A stretch of 5,061 nucleotides of DNA from a virus (Duplodnaviria > Heunggongvirae > Uroviricota > Caudoviricetes). This document shows, in pieces, positions 1 through 5,061 of this stretch (position 1 is the first letter of the stretch; every line of letters begins with the position of its first letter). The stretch spans positions 1 through 5,061 of IMG/VR virus record IMGVR_UViG_3300013741_000048. One strand, written 5' to 3'. Made by a program: the position numbers and the translations under genes. The notes beneath the pieces are model-generated. The model was given only the letters and a program-made list of their open reading frames with translations. It was not told the DNA's origin and did not search any database.

Positions 1-603
1 CAAAAGTGCCTGTAAGACAATAGGTTTTACCCTCTAACTCTATCGAAGCCCCTACATCAATAGGCAGCCTGGTCGCCAAACCATCCACCACCCCACTTTC
101 CAAGTCACATCCTGTGAAGTCTACTAATGCCTTATGTAGAGTTAAACTCTCATCTTCAGTAATAACCCCATCTTTAAGAATTTCCTTTACAAGTGCATAA
201 AGTTTTTTTCCTGGGTAGTTGTTCTTCAAAGCTCCATTTTGCTCAAGCCACCAATTAAGATATCTTATTTCTTCTTGAGTTAAGTTCCGATCAGCAATTA
301 ATCCTTTACATAGTCCATTAAGTAAATGGACATCTACATCCTTGGAGTAAAAATCAATTTCAGGGATATCAAGAATTTCCCTCTGTATTTGGAGAAGGCT
401 ATTTTTAAGGTCATCACGTTCTTCTGATGTGATTATTCCATCCGCAAGAATATCCGACACCCGTGCTGATAGACTTTTTATAACTCCATTATTGATAATC
501 TGCTTTGCTTCAAGTAACCATGTATCTAAGTAAAGAACCTCCTCTTCACGGACAACTCCATCTGCAANNNNNNNNNNTTAAAAGCGTAAAGCGCGTCTTC
601 CAT
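1..603 (-). CDS. Partial CDS (C-terminus beyond window start): hypothetical protein with four tandem TerB-like helical repeats followed by a BRCT-like motif; N-terminus interrupted by an N-run
   Basis: Hand translation of the minus strand gives an uninterrupted frame from 565 down to 2 (188 codons, no stop) in AT-rich DNA. It reads ADGVVREEEVLYLDTWL...ADGIITSEERDDL...ADRNLTQEEIRYL...KDGVITEDESLTLHKAL...IELEGKTYCLTGTF. Probable start is ATG at 601-603 (minus), 4 nt downstream of GGAGG (complement of 608-612), giving MEDALYAF before the gap at 568-577. It is absent from the ORF track because it has no Met and no stop inside the window. Domain names are from motif recognition, not a search. Confidence 0.6.
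568..577. other. Run of 10 N (assembly gap or masked bases) inside the N-terminal region of the minus-strand CDS
   Basis: Literal n characters. With exactly 10 bases the ATG at 601-603 is out of frame with the open frame below 565 (a TAA would be read at 578-580), so the true gap length is probably not 10. Confidence 0.95.
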
Positions 604-666
604 ACAACCTCCTTTTTTTGATAATCCTTGCACTCCTTGGCTACTCGTTCAAACCACATAAAGTTG

Positions 667-695
667 TTGACAATATTCAAAACCACAACTAAATT
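667..695 (+). promoter_or_regulatory. Candidate sigma70 promoter (TTGACA, 17-bp spacer, TAAATT) pointing toward the 68-aa ORF, flanked by direct repeats TTCAAA(A)CCACA at 648-658 and 676-687
   Basis: Perfect -35 hexamer TTGACA at 667-672, 17-nt spacer, TAAATT at 690-695 (4/6 match to TATAAT). Near-identical 11-12 nt direct repeats bracket the -35. Sequence-only prediction. Confidence 0.35.
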
Positions 696-786
696 ACAAC
701 TTAAAGATGTTAAAACAACGAACAGGCAGGACGCCCACGAAGTAGCCGCCTGGGGCATATGAAGTCCAGGATGATTCGTTAGCAAC

Positions 787-810
787 AAAAAAGCGCCCTA
801 CAGGACGCTT
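787..810 (-). terminator. Rho-independent terminator-like hairpin on the minus strand
   Basis: Plus strand reads AAAAAA GCGCCC TACA GGACGC TT. On the minus-strand transcript this is a GC-rich stem (one G-U wobble) with a 4-nt loop followed by a run of 6 U. On the plus strand the same stem has a C-A mismatch and no U-run. Confidence 0.5.
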
Positions 811-868
811 AGCTCTTTAACAATCTGGTCCCCATCAACAAGTAACTGATAACTTGAGGAGGTGTGAA

Positions 869-1075
869 ATGCACAAAACAGAACCAAAAATCGTCGCGCC
901 CGGATACACAAATGAGGAAATTTACGAGTGGATGGCAAAGAAGCTGGCAGCTATAAACCAGCTTCGTGAAGTGCTGTCTTATCGACAGGAAACAATAGAC
1001 TCCTTAAAAAAACTGGATCAGGAAATCACGGTTTTATCACAGGATGTTACTTTAGATATTGTGCAGACAAATTAG
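869..1075 (+). CDS. Small hypothetical protein (68 aa), predicted helical/coiled-coil
   Basis: ATG at 869 is 6 nt downstream of GAGGAGG (856-862); TAG stop at 1073-1075. The ORF track starts at the upstream in-frame TTG (854). Its 3' end overlaps the convergent 144-aa gene by 29 nt. No family recognised. Confidence 0.45.
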   Translation: MHKTEPKIVAPGYTNEEIYEWMAKKLAAINQLREVLSYRQETIDSLKKLDQEITVLSQDVTLDIVQTN

Positions 1076-1481
1076 GATCCCATTCATTTTCGTCAAAATC
1101 ATCAAAGTGATGAATTTGTGATCTCCAGTCTCGATAATCTAAAAATTTCTGGGCGGTTACGCTTATTTTATCAAGCATGAGTTCATCCTGAATTGAAAGA
1201 AGAAGTTCATCAAATTTCATCTCATTAATCTGTTTTGGCATCCAGTGATGCTTCATCAGAATAAGGTGAACCAGAGCTTTTTTCCCATTCAACTGATTAT
1301 AGGGAGTGCCGAATTTCTTCCGGTGCTCATGTAAGACAAGGTCCAGAAGAGTAAGTAATGTTGCCCTTGATTCAACTTTGCTTATTTCGACTGATGACAC
1401 TCCCCCACTGATTTCAATGCCCCGATACTTTCCAACATTTTCACAGTGGGATTTGTACAGCGTATAGATATTACCGGACAT
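1047..1481 (-). CDS. Hypothetical protein (144 aa), AT-rich, opposite orientation to the phage operon
   Basis: Complete ORF from ATG (complement of 1479-1481) to TAA (complement of 1047-1049), with a purine-rich stretch (AAAAGGAAAAG) just upstream. No family recognised from sequence. A weak R-x4-H motif (RSQIHH) near the C-terminus is HEPN-like but unconvincing. Confidence 0.6.
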   Translation of the reverse strand: MSGNIYTLYKSHCENVGKYRGIEISGGVSSVEISKVESRATLLTLLDLVLHEHRKKFGTPYNQLNGKKALVHLILMKHHWMPKQINEMKFDELLLSIQDELMLDKISVTAQKFLDYRDWRSQIHHFDDFDENEWDPNLSAQYLK

Positions 1482-1496
1482 TTCTTTTCCTTTTGC

Positions 1497-1544
1497 GTTG
1501 TTGGGGATAACCAGATTAACCGAATCCTTGTTGTTGGGGAATAA
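1497..1544. repeat. Two direct repeats GTTGTTGGGGA(A)TAA (1497-1510 and 1530-1544), 33 bp apart, immediately upstream of the 144-aa gene start
   Basis: Exact 14/15-nt match seen in sequence, with weaker similarity extending about 11 nt to the 3' side (CCAGATTAACC vs CTAGGTCCACC). The position fits operator or iteron-like sites in the promoter region of the minus-strand gene. Confidence 0.7.
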
Positions 1545-1765
1545 CTAGGTCCACCTCGCCTGATGTGGCTAAAAGCAGGCACATAACAGCTAAGTATTTT
1601 CAACCAGAGAGAATCCTTAGCGTTGTGGTGAATGCGGCTCAGCGCACGCGGGTTAAGGTTGAGGCTGACAGTCGACCTTCTGTGGATACCCACCCGCCTG
1701 GTGTGCAACCTTCGCCAGGCACCGGGAGGCACCCGGCACCACAACTTTATGCTGCGTGTAGTCTT

Positions 1766-1812
1766 GGCGGTACCAGCTTGTACCCTTGCTTCCGGCTGGT
1801 ACCGTCCTTTTT
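1766..1812 (+). terminator. Rho-independent terminator-like hairpin on the plus strand, upstream of yfdP
   Basis: Perfect 10-bp stem CGGTACCAGC (1768-1777) / GCTGGTACCG (1795-1804), extendable with G-U pairs, followed by C then TTTTT (1808-1812). There is no U-run on the opposite strand. Confidence 0.5.
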
Positions 1813-1901
1813 ACAAAACAGAGAAGAGCATCACCGGACGACGGGCTCATAACCCAATCCATCCGGGCGGCTGTCACCGCAGGTGTTCTTCTCTGTTTTG
1901 T
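1813..1901. repeat. Perfect 15-bp inverted repeat ACAAAACAGAGAAGA (1813-1827) / TCTTCTCTGTTTTGT (1887-1901) flanking a 59-bp GC-rich spacer
   Basis: Exact reverse-complement match read directly from the sequence. It starts right after the terminator U-tract and ends 48 nt before the yfdP start codon. Confidence 0.85.
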
Positions 1902-1949
1902 GGAGAAACCAACCGACCTTGCAGGGTCGATATGATGAGGAGCAGCAAA

Positions 1950-2312
1950 ATGGCTAGCGAACGCAGTACTGATGTGCAGGCATTTATCGGGGAGCTGGAC
2001 GGCGGCGTATTTGAAACCAAAATCGGCGCAGTTCTCAGTGAAGTCGCTTCCGGTGTGATGAACACGAAAACCAAAGGTAAGGTCTCACTCAACCTGGAAA
2101 TCGAACCATTTGATGAGAACCGTGTGAAAATCAAACACAAACTCTCATATGTTCGCCCGACTAACCGCGGGAAAATTTCCGAAGAAGACACCACCGAAAC
2201 GCCGATGTATGTCAATCGCGGTGGTCGTCTGACTATTCTGCAGGAAGACCAGGGACAATTACTGACTCTTGCCGGTGAACCTGACGGAAAACTCCGCGCA
2301 GCAGGTCATTAA
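1950..2312 (+). CDS. yfdP: YfdP-like prophage protein of unknown function (120 aa)
   Basis: ATG at 1950 is 7 nt downstream of AGGAG (1938-1942). The product MASERSTDVQAFIGELDGG... matches my recollection of E. coli CPS-53 YfdP in sequence and length. The longer track ORF (1632..2312) extends into the GC-rich island with a non-protein-like translation. Confidence 0.8.
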   Translation: MASERSTDVQAFIGELDGGVFETKIGAVLSEVASGVMNTKTKGKVSLNLEIEPFDENRVKIKHKLSYVRPTNRGKISEEDTTETPMYVNRGGRLTILQEDQGQLLTLAGEPDGKLRAAGH

Positions 2313-2377
2313 TATCGTTCTTAATTAACTGATTATTTATCTCATCACTGAATATCTTTATATAATGAGGACTTATT

Positions 2378-3202
2378 ATGTCTCAGAACTTAGACGCAAC
2401 CGCAATTAATCAAATCCATGCCCTTATTTCTGCTCAGGGTGTTAATGAAATTATCAGTAAGATTGGTGCCGATGCTGTGGCATTGCCTGAGAATTTCCGC
2501 ATTCATGATCTGGAAAAATTTAATTTAAATCGCTTCCGTTTCCGTGGTGCGCTTTCCACTGCCAGCATCGATGACTTTACCCGTTATTCTAAAGATCTTG
2601 CAGATGAAGGCACCCGCTGCTTTATCGATGCTGATAATATGCGTGCCGTCAGTGTGCTTAACCTGGGTACTATTGATGAACCAGGTCACGCCGATAACAC
2701 CGCCACTCTCAAACTGAAAAAGACAGCACCGTTCTCTGCTCTGTTGTCTGTTAATGGCGAGCGTAATTCCCAGAAGTCACTGGCAGAATGGATTGAAGAC
2801 TGGGCCGACTACCTTGTGGGCTTTGATGCTAATGGTGACGCTATTCAGGCAACAAAAGCGGCTGCGGCTGTCCGTAAAATCACGATTGAAGCAAACCAGA
2901 CCGCTGATTTTGAAGATAATGACTTCAGCGGCAAACGCTCCCTGATGGAGTCTGTCGAAGCGAAGACCAAAGACATTATGCCAGTGGCATTTGAATTTAA
3001 ATGCGTTCCGTTTGAAGGTCTGAAAGAACGTTCTTTTAAATTACGCCTCAGCATTATCACTGGCGATCGTCCTGTACTTGTTCTGCGCATTATTCAGCTG
3101 GAGGCTGTGCAGGAAGAAATGGCTAACGAATTTCGTGATCTGCTTGTTGAGAAATTCAAGGACAGCAAAGTAGAAACCTTTATTGGTACTTTCACCGCCT
3201 GA
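2378..3202 (+). CDS. yfdQ: YfdQ-like prophage protein (274 aa; DUF2303 family as recalled)
   Basis: Complete ORF with RBS GAGG (2367-2370) upstream of ATG 2378. Length and sequence match my recollection of CPS-53 YfdQ. Family assignment is from memory, not a search. Confidence 0.88.
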
Positions 3203-3214
3203 TTTGATTACTGC

Positions 3215-3236
3215 AAATGCCCCTGCGGGGGCATTT
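3215..3236 (+). terminator. Hairpin AAATGCCCC-TGC-GGGGGCATTT downstream of yfdQ; weak or bidirectional terminator-like element
   Basis: 9-bp inverted repeat with a GC core and 3-4 nt loop, followed by TTTAT. The U-tract is short, so termination is probably partial. Confidence 0.4.
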
Positions 3237-3329
3237 ATGGAAACGTAATTGACTCAATAATCGCCGGATGGTGAGGGCTTCCTTTTACCAGAATTCAGCG
3301 CGGTGCAGCGCATATACGTGGAGAACAAA

Positions 3330-3866
3330 ATGTCATTTATTAAAACTTTTTCCGGGAAGCATTTTTATTATGACAGGATAAATAAAGACGATATCGTGAT
3401 TAACGATATCGCAGTTTCCCTTTCAAATATCTGTCGCTTTGCCGGTCATCTTTCACACTTCTACAGCGTCGCCCAACATGCGGTGCTTTGCAGCCAGCTG
3501 GTGCCGCAGGAATTTGCTTTTGAAGCGTTAATGCATGATGCAACAGAAGCGTATTGTCAGGACATTCCCGCACCACTGAAACGCCTTCTTCCTGACTATA
3601 AACGGATGGAAGAAAAAATAGACGCCGTAATCCGTGAGAAATACGGGTTACCCCCGGTTATGAGTACACCCGTGAAATATGCCGATCTCATCATGCTGGC
3701 AACCGAACGCCGCGATCTCGGGCTTGATGATGGCTCTTTCTGGCCTGTACTGGAAGGCATCCCGGCAACAGAGATGTTCAACGTGATTCCACTGGCACCG
3801 GGCCATGCCTACGGGATGTTTATGGAACGCTTTAACGAATTATCGGAGTTACGCAAATGCGCATGA
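3330..3866 (+). CDS. yfdR: HD-domain phosphohydrolase, YfdR-like 5'-deoxynucleotidase (178 aa)
   Basis: ATG at 3330 is 6 nt downstream of GGAG (3320-3323); the track ORF starts at an upstream in-frame GTG (3303). The protein has H...HD spacing (SVAQHAV ... LMHDATEAY) typical of HD-domain metal-dependent phosphohydrolases. Length matches my recollection of E. coli YfdR. Confidence 0.85.
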   Translation: MSFIKTFSGKHFYYDRINKDDIVINDIAVSLSNICRFAGHLSHFYSVAQHAVLCSQLVPQEFAFEALMHDATEAYCQDIPAPLKRLLPDYKRMEEKIDAVIREKYGLPPVMSTPVKYADLIMLATERRDLGLDDGSFWPVLEGIPATEMFNVIPLAPGHAYGMFMERFNELSELRKCA

Positions 3867-4219
3867 ATGTTTTCGAAATGGAAGGGTTTCTTCGCGGGAA
3901 ATGTGTACCGCGAGATCTGAAAGTGAATGAAACGGATGCTGAATACCTGGTGCGTAAATTCGATGCGCTTGAAGCTAAATGTGCAGCACAGGAAAACAAA
4001 GTAATACCAGTGTCAACTGAACTGCCACCAGCAAATGAAAGTGTTCTGTTATTTGATGCTAATGGAGAAGGCTGGCTGATTGGCTGGCGTTCTCTCTGGT
4101 ACACCTGGGGACAAAAAGAAACCGGAGAATGGCAGTGGACATTTCAGGTCGGGGACCTTGAAAACGTCAATATCACTCACTGGGCAGTAATGCCAAAAGC
4201 ACCGGAGGCTGGAGCATAA
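3857..4219 (+). CDS. yfdS: YfdS-like phage protein (120 aa; DUF551 as recalled)
   Basis: ATG 3857 follows GGAG (3845-3848). An alternative ATG at 3863 forms an ATGA overlap with the yfdR stop (3864-3866). The C-terminal region (WQWTF...ITHWAVMPKAPE) resembles DUF551 phage proteins. Confidence 0.8.
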   Translation: MRMNVFEMEGFLRGKCVPRDLKVNETDAEYLVRKFDALEAKCAAQENKVIPVSTELPPANESVLLFDANGEGWLIGWRSLWYTWGQKETGEWQWTFQVGDLENVNITHWAVMPKAPEAGA

Positions 4220-4524
4220 TGACCACTTTTACCGACAAAGAACTGATTAAAGAAATTAAAGAGCGTATCAGCAGCCTTGACGTGCGAGACGATATTGAGC
4301 GCCGTGCTTATGAAATCGCACTCGTATCTCTGGAAGTAGAGCCAGATGAACGCGAAGCCTATGAATTATTCATGGAAAAGCGTTTCGGTGACTTAGTAGA
4401 TCGTCGGAGAGCAAAAAACGGCGATAACGAATACATGGCATGGGATATGACTCTCGGTTGGATCGTCTGGCAGCAACGAGCTGGTATCCATTTCTCAACA
4501 ATGTCACAGCAAGAGGTGAAATAA
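4219..4524 (+). CDS. yfdT: YfdT-like small phage early protein (101 aa), function unknown
   Basis: TAATG overlap with the yfdS stop (4217-4219 / 4219-4221), GGAG at 4211-4214. Length and sequence match my recollection of CPS-53 YfdT. Confidence 0.78.
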   Translation: MTTFTDKELIKEIKERISSLDVRDDIERRAYEIALVSLEVEPDEREAYELFMEKRFGDLVDRRRAKNGDNEYMAWDMTLGWIVWQQRAGIHFSTMSQQEVK

Positions 4525-4874
4525 TGGAGCCATACAGCCTCACACTCGATGAGGCCTGTCAGTTTCTTAAGATATCCAGACCAACCGCCACCAACTGGAT
4601 ACGAACAGGCCGCCTACAGGCAACACGTAAAGATCCAACCAAGCCAAAATCTCCTTACCTCACAACACGGCAAGCCTGCATTGCGGCGCTTCAGTCTCCG
4701 CTGCATACTGTCCAGGTGAGCGCGGGTGATGGCATAACAGAGGAAAGAAAATGTCACTCTTCCGCAGAGGTGAAATATGGTACGCCAGTTTCACATTGCC
4801 GAACGGTAAAAGATTTAAACAGTCTCTTGGAACAAAGGACAAAAGGCAGGCGACAGAACTCCATGACAAGCTAA
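4524..4874 (+). CDS. xis: Excisionase, P22-type Xis (116 aa)
   Basis: ATG 4524 is 7 nt downstream of GAGG (4513-4516) and overlaps the yfdT stop (TAATG). The N-terminus [26 protein letters not shown] is a typical excisionase/AlpA-type winged-helix motif. Its 3' end overlaps the integrase start. The track ORF (4440..4874) is an in-frame upstream extension overlapping yfdT and is not preferred. Confidence 0.85.
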
Positions 4875-5061
4875 AGGCTGAAGCATGGCGGGTCAGCAAA
4901 CTTGGTGAAATACCTGATATAACGTTCGAGGAAGCGTGTGTCAGGTGGCTTGAAGAGAAAGCACATAAAAAATCACTGGACGATGACAAAAGCCGGATCG
5001 GATTCTGGCTTCAACATTTCGCAGGAATGCAACTAAGAGACATTACTGAATCAAAAATTTA
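4751..5061 (+). CDS. int: Tyrosine integrase, P22/e14-type; N-terminal ~103 codons only, continues beyond window end
   Basis: ATG 4751 with GAGG at 4739-4742. The N-terminus [48 protein letters not shown]... is the characteristic arm-binding N-terminal domain of P22-family integrases (recalled). Frame is open to the last base. Confidence 0.92.

Follow-up and report, generated by a model that had tools for sequence, protein, structure and literature searches.

What kind of element is the AT-rich left end of a lambdoid prophage in which three genes stand beside a conserved operon and mostly face against it: one inserted defence module, or something else? The question is raised by a 5,061-nucleotide (nt) stretch of DNA from a tailed phage (IMG/VR record IMGVR_UViG_3300013741_000048, positions 1 to 5,061; the whole stretch is called the window here), in which a plus-strand operon from yfdP to int is preceded by a gene for a BRCT-domain protein, a gene for a protein of 68 amino acids (the 68-aa gene) and a gene of the ECs1072 family. 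An initial annotation, made from the letters alone, had read the three as a single inserted module with its own candidate promoter and terminator, of a kind typically expressed from the prophage, and a candidate for defence. The block that precedes the operon is indeed accessory cargo, carried by an Escherichia coli lambdoid prophage. It consists of two separately inherited units with putative functions and is not one three-gene defence module: unit A is the BRCT gene, tied to the phage repressor, and unit B, the 68-aa gene and ECs1072, is a convergent pair that can be exchanged. We consider it rather more probable than the reverse that the left third of the window is a lysogeny-side accessory region in which the two units act independently, by the steps set out below for each.

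The window belongs to an e14/CPS-53-like lambdoid prophage of E. coli, as judged from the listing of its open reading frames (ORFs) and from megablast. A near-identical locus, L001 (NZ_CP062811), has the order, from left to right, cro-like gene (−), gene for a 228-aa repressor with HTH_3 and Peptidase_S24 domains (+; named cI here), 296-aa BRCT gene (−), 68-aa gene (+), ECs1072 (−), a block rich in guanine and cytosine (GC), and then yfdP, yfdQ, yfdR, yfdS, yfdT, xis and int (all +). The three annotated genes do exist. A run of ten N at 568–577 stands in for 59 nt of the BRCT gene (L001 12568–12626), and the BRCT ORF therefore looks broken in the window; the full gene occupies 11762–12652 of L001 and encodes WP_000389078.1. 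Both small ORFs are under purifying selection, with a ratio of non-synonymous to synonymous substitution (dN/dS) of 0.25 for ECs1072 against the Escherichia albertii copy (dS 0.72) and non-synonymous over synonymous polymorphism (pN/pS) of 0.028/0.141 for the 68-aa ORF. The compositional contrast is also borne out, with GC 0.396 in 1–1481 and 0.472 in 1482–5061; the strongest contrast is given by the block 1488–1950 (0.533). The block is mostly antisense to the early-left operon, as the annotation had it, and sits at the lambdoid position where prophage-expressed morons are found. All of its genes are already in public records as hypothetical, "BRCT domain-containing" or "ECs1072 family".

The genome counts separate the two units. 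Across 5426 complete E. coli genomes, ECs1072 is found in 421 and the 68-aa gene in 416, with both in 407; the BRCT gene is found in 47, and all three genes (the whole of 1–1900) in 12. The three genes are therefore not one module. Many prophages match the window only from 713 onward and have another repressor and no BRCT gene, and other prophages have the BRCT gene together with a different gene replacing the 68-aa/ECs1072 pair. Synteny with related prophages thus agrees with the annotation in that the left region of the window is variable and the block accessory, and departs from it in the number of units. The features are collected in Table 1.

Table 1. Features of the left part of the window, in window coordinates
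Feature	Position	Strand	Description
BRCT-domain protein gene (unit A)	1..603	−	codons 1–217 of 296, 3' end left of the window; start codon 603–601
pL with repressor-operator-like repeats	653..712	+	−35 at 667–672, −10 at 690–695; repeats 653–667 and 696–710; left edge of the immunity cassette
Conserved pL leader	713..828	+	common to prophages of different immunity types; hairpin 791–810, boxA 812–823
Exchangeable cargo cassette (unit B)	829..1487	both	68-aa gene and ECs1072; bounded by inverted copies of TCCCCAhCAACrA
68-aa gene	869..1075	+	GAGGAGG Shine-Dalgarno sequence; first gene of the pL transcript; acidic product, isoelectric point 5.0
ECs1072 gene	1047..1481	−	144 aa; antisense to the pL transcription unit
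Conserved right flank of the slot	1488..1603	−	shared 5' region of any minus-strand cargo; two copies of CCCCAACAAC
GC-rich structured element	1604..1815	+	STnc100/PasD-related, sub-threshold; between cargo slot and yfdP

The promoter that had been assigned to the module is that of the phage. The sequence TTGACA-17-TAAATT at 667–695 (10 of 12 in the promoter scan) is on the plus strand and is the early-left promoter pL with its repressor operators. The intergenic DNA upstream of the BRCT gene was aligned across six loci and is near-invariant from the BRCT start codon through pL in the E. coli, Citrobacter and Serratia loci with the same cI. This conservation ends at 712, and homology with prophages of other immunity types begins at 713. 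The repeats around pL recur between cI and cro (the right operator, OR), and a 12-nt exact repeat, ACATAAAGTTGT, is common to both places. The motif ACAACTTWWWGNTGT has four matches in the window (0.04 expected) and six within 26 kilobases (kb; 0.08 expected), which fall only in OR, in the left operator (OL)/pL site and at window position 1741; as the motif was derived from the OR and pL sites themselves, its confinement there is the informative part. At the equivalent place the e14 prophage of K-12 has a promoter of its own, TTGACA-17-CATAAT, with its own repeats. We read 653–712 as OL/pL because its repeats are shared with OR, because conservation ends at 712 and because e14 has its own promoter there. 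Operator repeats are thus present at both divergent control regions (binding of cI to them is predicted), and they are co-inherited with the cI allele, as in a lambdoid immunity cassette; on these comparisons, the BRCT gene is inside the cassette (cro, OR, cI, BRCT gene, OL/pL) and travels with one cI allele. A third site of the operator-like motif, ACAACTTTATGCTGC at 1741–1755 (+), lies about 1 kb from OL inside the GC-rich structured element; it could be a remote putative repressor site or a chance match.

Wherever the BRCT gene is found in E. coli, Citrobacter and Serratia prophages, it converges on one and the same 228-aa cI, and the DNA beyond the gene is variable; in L001 the 3' ends of the two genes overlap. 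In one prophage (L017, NZ_OW967966; locus at 956–1200) an internal deletion has removed most of the BRCT ORF, leaving the first codons and the last ~125 nt next to a cI that is 93% identical in amino acid sequence. The gene is hence dispensable for the immunity cassette, and L017 is a natural deletion mutant open to phenotypic comparison. A putative BRCT-gene promoter, divergent from pL, must be within 653–712; a search for a sigma-70-type promoter of this gene gave at best 7–8 of 12 matches and no credible −10. Outside the lambdoid phages, the homologue in Vibrio phage K139 is orf2 (32.6% identity over 95% of the query, E 7e-39), which follows cI on the same strand in an annotated lysogenic operon, cI-orf2-glo-int. 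In Pseudomonas phages Marin and PG1 the homologues (~33% identity) are likewise placed after cI in the same orientation. The link to S24-type repressors, as read from these gene neighbourhoods, is broad, and fits a putative lysogen-expressed exclusion gene or a putative induction modulator alike.

The BRCT protein is made up of two four-helix units followed by the C-terminal BRCT domain. It had been annotated as TerB-like and BRCT-like, and the second half of this description stands: residues 206–290 match Pfam BRCT (PF00533) at 29 bits against a cut-off of 21.3 (E 1.3e-6), and the α/β fold of the domain is present in the AlphaFold2 model (predicted local distance difference test, pLDDT, 70). 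TerB (PF05099), considered for the N-terminal helical repeats, gave no match. T214-G215 and R222 do not vary among 28 homologues, in which position 258 is either K or R. In the phmmer alignment these residues coincide with the VITG..ER..SDK segment of RFC1, a segment of p140 that binds the 5'-phosphate of DNA. The first helical unit (residues 34–92, window ~330–500, minus strand) has weak matches to the YmfL family of phage regulators (NCBIfam NF041471, E 1.6e-4) and to PHROG 6499, "transcriptional regulator" (E 6e-5), and the protein carries four repeats of an ADG-x-[VI]-T-x-EE-like motif. Residues 119–251 match positions 239–377 of the 411 positions of the PADLOC model PDC-S48 (E 2.4e-7). 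The match is partial, as it takes in about one-third of the model and leaves out the first 238 positions, and the likeness is limited to the second helical unit and the start of the BRCT domain; PDC-S48 is itself an unvalidated defence candidate. Our literature search found no paper that ties BRCT to anti-phage defence and no paper that mentions PDC-S48.

For unit A we propose that a weak promoter facing away from pL would drive synthesis of the protein in the lysogen. Through a putative RFC1-like phosphate pocket (T214-G215, R222, K/R258) the protein would bind 5'-phosphorylated DNA ends or a phosphorylated partner, and this binding would serve either the exclusion of incoming phage DNA or the tuning of induction. 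In a different account, the protein is a regulator of the choice between lysis and lysogeny: it would sense DNA damage (5'-phosphate ends or gaps), or bind a repair or replication protein, and act on the neighbouring S24-type cI by modulating either its RecA-dependent self-cleavage or its operators. Modules of cI and BRCT genes in Roseobacter prophages are treated in a 2026 preprint as DNA-damage-responsive regulatory cassettes, the sensing of damage being assumed there. Homologues adjoin S24-type cI genes in unrelated temperate phages of Escherichia, Citrobacter, Serratia, Vibrio and Pseudomonas, the N-terminal helices have the weak regulator matches given above (to YmfL-type proteins and PHROG 6499), and the protein is without an enzymatic or toxic domain, all of which would suit a regulator. 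It is harder to reconcile with a prophage that has the same cI and lacks the gene (L017), with the presence of the gene in just 47 of the E. coli genomes and with the partial PDC-S48 match, which points to defence islands; moreover, sites adjacent to cI are also classic for exclusion genes, such as rexAB in lambda and the annotated glo in K139. We regard the regulator as possible but doubtful.

The position of unit A is best compared with lambda rexA-rexB, the immunity-region exclusion genes beside cI. Like the BRCT gene, these are accessory genes between OL/pL and cI that are inherited with the immunity type and are dispensable for repression. Unlike them, the BRCT gene is a single gene converging on cI, not co-transcribed from the repressor promoter pRM, and its product is a BRCT-domain protein and not a membrane/sensor pair; it has no sequence or domain similarity to rexAB, and no PADLOC match except PDC-S48. 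The K139 orf2 product, in contrast, is a true homologue, encoded directly downstream of cI and beside the exclusion gene glo in the lysogenic operon; it differs in being on the same strand as cI and in a P2-like (Peduoviridae) phage, and to our knowledge it has no assigned function.

Unit B occupies a slot whose edges can be placed by comparison. Exchange junctions were taken from pairwise BLAST against loci carrying other cargos. On the left they fall mostly at 825–844, with three loci (L005, L007 and L021) breaking earlier, at ~778–780. On the right they fall mostly at 1488–1511, with identity of at least 97% beyond, and the same three loci resume at 1551. Two further loci, L003 and L006, match the window at 578–828 and again from 1488/1511 on and differ in between. 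The motif TCCCCAhCAACrA occurs at 829–841 (+), 1495–1507 (−) and 1528–1540 (−), three matches against 0.06 expected. The right-hand pair are direct repeats of CCCCAACAAC ~20–50 nt upstream of whichever minus-strand gene is present, and they lie 5' of every minus-strand cargo examined; the third copy, at 829–841, is inverted. The copies coincide with exchange junctions and may mark hot spots of recombination, the site of a regulator or an element common to the 5' untranslated regions (UTRs).

A terminator had also been credited to the module. It is real in form: the terminator scan gives a site at 810–791 on the minus strand with an 8-base-pair GC-rich stem, and in the minus-strand reading the hairpin is followed by TTTTTTGTT, the canonical form of an intrinsic terminator for cargo transcripts. 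It is not, however, the module's own, since it is located in a backbone shared by all cargo variants. Because most of the exchange junctions fall inside of both, terminator and 5' flank are conserved backbone and serve any cargo; the putative cargo promoter is presumed to be within the right flank. Read in the other direction, the same hairpin precedes a boxA. This is an rrn-type boxA, GCTCTTTAACAA, an exact match (0.04 expected), and the Citrobacter leader in L006 has the full boxA TGCTCTTTAACAA. A hairpin followed by boxA is the order of rRNA operons, unlike the order in lambda nut, and no N-like gene is evident. This arrangement suggests that the early-left operon is subject to a host-factor-dependent antitermination, as predicted from the hairpin/boxA order and from the lack of an N-like gene.

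The slot is common and its contents are diverse. With window positions 713–1640 (928 nt) as query, 1928 of the 5426 genomes match some part of it, and it holds at least seven unrelated cargos. Besides the 68-aa/ECs1072 pair of the window, these are a family of 159–164 aa with two transmembrane segments (judged by hydrophobic stretches), proteins of 171 aa (coiled-coil, with cysteine pairs), 167 aa and 170 aa (with a hydrophobic stretch at the N terminus and a weak match of LprI type), a 91-aa gene (+), an 87-aa gene and ymfJ/ymfI of e14. Six of the seven alternative cargos are minus-strand genes. The alternative cargos have no family assignment in Pfam, PADLOC or NCBIfam, with sub-threshold matches only in Pfam; a 311-aa cargo protein of L009 has a collagen-repeat match. 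Six of the seven E. coli/Citrobacter cargos fall in PHROG families, all without an assigned function. From this pattern of exchange the slot behaves as a predicted fixed expression slot, and not as a series of self-contained morons. The lambdoid morons of HK97 and lambda (lom, bor) are likewise AT-rich and variable in their presence, face against the operon and have an intrinsic terminator behind them; the difference is that here terminator and 5' flank are a conserved backbone for whichever cargo is present.

The ECs1072 protein is a full-length member of its family (NCBIfam NF033230, 154.9 bits against a cut-off of 70, residues 4–144 on positions 2–142 of the 142 in the model) and matches PHROG 5286. 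Among 1.84 billion proteins the family forms 64 clusters at 50% identity, all of 145–155 aa. The AlphaFold2 model is all-α (pLDDT 94.2, predicted template modelling score 0.88) and has no structural relative among PDB or BFVD structures (Foldseek against BFVD: none with E < 1). Pfam searches with all 47 homologues gave nothing consistent. A relationship to myoglobin, the sole match of the 47-homologue profile against PDB sequences, was judged to be chance, and an HD-domain phosphohydrolase, considered for a weak fold resemblance, was rejected, as neither the H...HD...D motif nor a significant fold match was found. The 68-aa protein is in PHROG 1744 (E 5.8e-33), and homologues of its gene were found at 30–34% identity. 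PADLOC-DB 2.0.0, with systems described up to 2023, gave no matches at E up to 1 for either protein; the annotation was right in placing the three proteins outside the described defence families, and the profile searches gave only the partial PDC-S48 match of the BRCT protein. Our literature search found no paper on ECs1072 beyond one microarray table; this table, from strain Sakai, lists the gene as growth-phase responsive and shows only that its RNA is detectable.

The 3' ends of the two genes overlap by 29 nt, and the pair recurs, converging and overlapping, at 30–38% identity in L025 and in Serratia L008. In L025 the ECs1072 homologue is 38% identical and the small protein matches the 68-aa protein at E 6e-11. 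The Serratia ECs1072 homologue (L008 5062–5508, +; 148 aa) is an unannotated ORF converging on the 68-aa homologue. ECs1072 homologues are also found in other prophages, some of them antisense between Q and the holin gene, an interval that is a classic moron site. In Salmonella phage ST64B (L015) an unannotated ORF of the family at 3359–3712 (+) lies between Q (sb49) and the holin gene (sb51), antisense to sb50. Between E. coli and E. albertii (L012, region 1005–1481) identity is ~95–99% in the flanks and over the first 45 codons of the 68-aa gene, and divergence is far greater in ECs1072 and in the 3' third of the small gene. This pattern of divergence points to allele replacement or to fast evolution within the cassette.

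A pair of the same design is found in the same slot of e14. In K-12 (L031, 1572–2159) ymfJ is in the pL sense and ymfI is antisense, and the two converge with a 63-nt overlap; they lie between the pL leader and an STnc100-like element upstream of xis and int. The design, a small pL-sense gene converging on and overlapping an antisense gene, is the same as in the window, and the proteins are unrelated to the 68-aa protein and ECs1072: BLASTP ruled out homology between the pairs. In e14, ymfJ is strongly induced late in the SOS response along with intE, and ymfI much less (PMC11002266).

For unit B we propose a course of events that turns on induction. In the lysogen, ECs1072 would be transcribed from the right flank and its transcript would end at ~791, so that its 3' UTR would cover the 68-aa gene in antisense. 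ECs1072 would be a prophage-expressed effector, for defence, exclusion or another lysogenic-conversion function. On derepression pL would fire at ~702, read the 68-aa gene first and run antisense through ECs1072; the 68-aa protein, as the first pL product, would be the cognate partner or antidote of ECs1072, and the resident phage would thereby escape its own cargo. The SOS pattern of ymfJ/ymfI is indirect support, by analogy, for this induction model. The annotation had likened the block to inserts that are typically expressed from the prophage. That does not fit the 68-aa gene, which is in the pL sense and therefore probably an early lytic gene rather than a lysogen-expressed one.

The overlapping arrangement could also be that of a toxin and its antidote, an addiction pair, or of a kil-like host-takeover gene under restraint. 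The 68-aa protein would then be the harmful partner, leaky expression of which is neutralised by the ECs1072 messenger RNA, through its antisense 3' UTR, and by the ECs1072 protein, with no part in phage defence. With its terminator 236 nt past the stop codon, the ECs1072 transcript would be antisense to the entire 68-aa gene; in addition, the genes converge with overlapping 3' ends, they co-occur tightly, and the same sense/antisense design is seen in e14 ymfJ/ymfI and in Serratia L010. In L010, however, the 68-aa homologue is alone and no harm is evident, ECs1072 homologues are found alone, including in non-prophage chromosomal contexts, and neither protein resembles a known toxin or antitoxin family. 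We think this explanation rather unlikely. A type II toxin-antitoxin pair in particular was considered and rejected, as the genes converge and are not co-directional and there is no toxin or antitoxin match in Pfam or NCBIfam.

The sense of the 68-aa gene bears on one more explanation, that these are normal early genes of the phage (accessories of replication or recombination, or genes against host defence) which act in lytic growth and have no role in the lysogen. The 68-aa gene is first in the operon, the neighbouring yfdP, yfdQ and yfdR belong to the early genes, the promoter search for ECs1072 gave nothing credible, and anti-defence genes are likewise small, fast-evolving and clustered at the starts of operons. 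This is difficult to square with the orientation of ECs1072 and of six of the seven alternative cargos, which run counter to the one promoter identified and have a minus-strand terminator just downstream. Both the cassette (from cargo exchange) and the BRCT gene (from the L017 deletion) are also dispensable and patchily distributed, and the K139 homologue of the BRCT gene is in an annotated lysogenic operon. We hold this explanation to be quite improbable.

Several observations weigh against our proposal of a lysogeny-side region with two acting units. No credible sigma-70-like promoter is found upstream of ECs1072 (best 7–8 of 12 matches), and since no promoter was identified, expression of ECs1072 and of the BRCT gene in the lysogen is read from orientation and terminator alone. 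Pairing is not obligatory, because ECs1072 homologues stand without a detectable 68-aa partner in L011, L026–L030 and ST64B; conversely, a 68-aa homologue is found without ECs1072 in Serratia L010. In E. albertii L012 an extra A in an A-run at ~1005 frameshifts the 68-aa ORF to 80 aa. Neither a catalytic nor a membrane domain, which could hint at an effector mechanism, is present in any of the three proteins, and the defence-family searches yielded nothing but the match to a candidate, PDC-S48. The constant link of the BRCT gene to S24-type repressors could mean a regulatory and not a defence role. With these points set against the evidence above, a putative defence or exclusion role, expressed in the lysogen, is plausible for the block.

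The logic that we propose for ECs1072 and the 68-aa gene is that of sieB of P22 and lambda (esc, sas) and of BstA/aba of the Salmonella prophage BTP1, prophage genes for abortive infection that come with self-immunity. SieB and BstA are the products of prophage-expressed early-left genes with a cognate element that is turned on by the early transcription of the resident phage. There is no homology to either, and ECs1072 is soluble and all-α and has neither transmembrane segments like those of SieB nor a KilA-N domain like that of BstA. The partner here would be a separate, converging protein gene, and not an internal start, an antisense RNA or a DNA site. Taking both units together, rexAB, K139 orf2-glo, P22 sieB/esc and BTP1 BstA/aba are the closest systems in position and logic, and homology is found only with K139 orf2. 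A bolder joint reading would have an undescribed two-component prophage system built on an orphan all-α fold, in which ECs1072 blocks superinfection and is turned off on induction by convergent pL transcription and by the 68-aa protein as a self-immunity factor, with the cI-linked BRCT protein as a DNA-end sensor of temperate phages in several proteobacterial orders; we consider it unlikely in this full form.

To the right of the slot, the GC-rich structured element matches Rfam RF02076 (STnc100) over the full length of the model at 42.8 bits (E 5e-7), below the gathering score of 47, a level that no related locus reaches. As the sub-threshold match spans the full model, the element is likely a relative of STnc100 and not a member. 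STnc100 is related to PasD, a prophage small RNA family (bioRxiv 10.64898/2026.05.13.724894). The Prokaryotic Genome Annotation Pipeline (PGAP) calls a "frameshifted hypothetical protein" over the element (ymfH in K-12), which is probably a mis-called ORF on an RNA gene. Outside the window, a tRNA gene lies directly past int in L001 (17981–18054, −) and is likely the attachment site. It is followed there by a second integrase gene, intF, and by CP4-6-like genes, and the prophage is therefore in a composite island.

The slot is common and holds at least seven unrelated families, which makes it a compact and easily cloned source of candidate exclusion and lysogenic-conversion genes. Three instances, with unrelated proteins, are seen of a small pL-sense gene that converges on an antisense cargo gene, and the recurrence of this sense/antisense design points to a general means by which prophages might shut off their own cargo when induced. 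From P2-like phages of Vibrio to the lambdoid phages of enterobacteria, the BRCT family goes together with S24-type repressors, and a few deletions could settle whether it acts in exclusion or in the control of induction.

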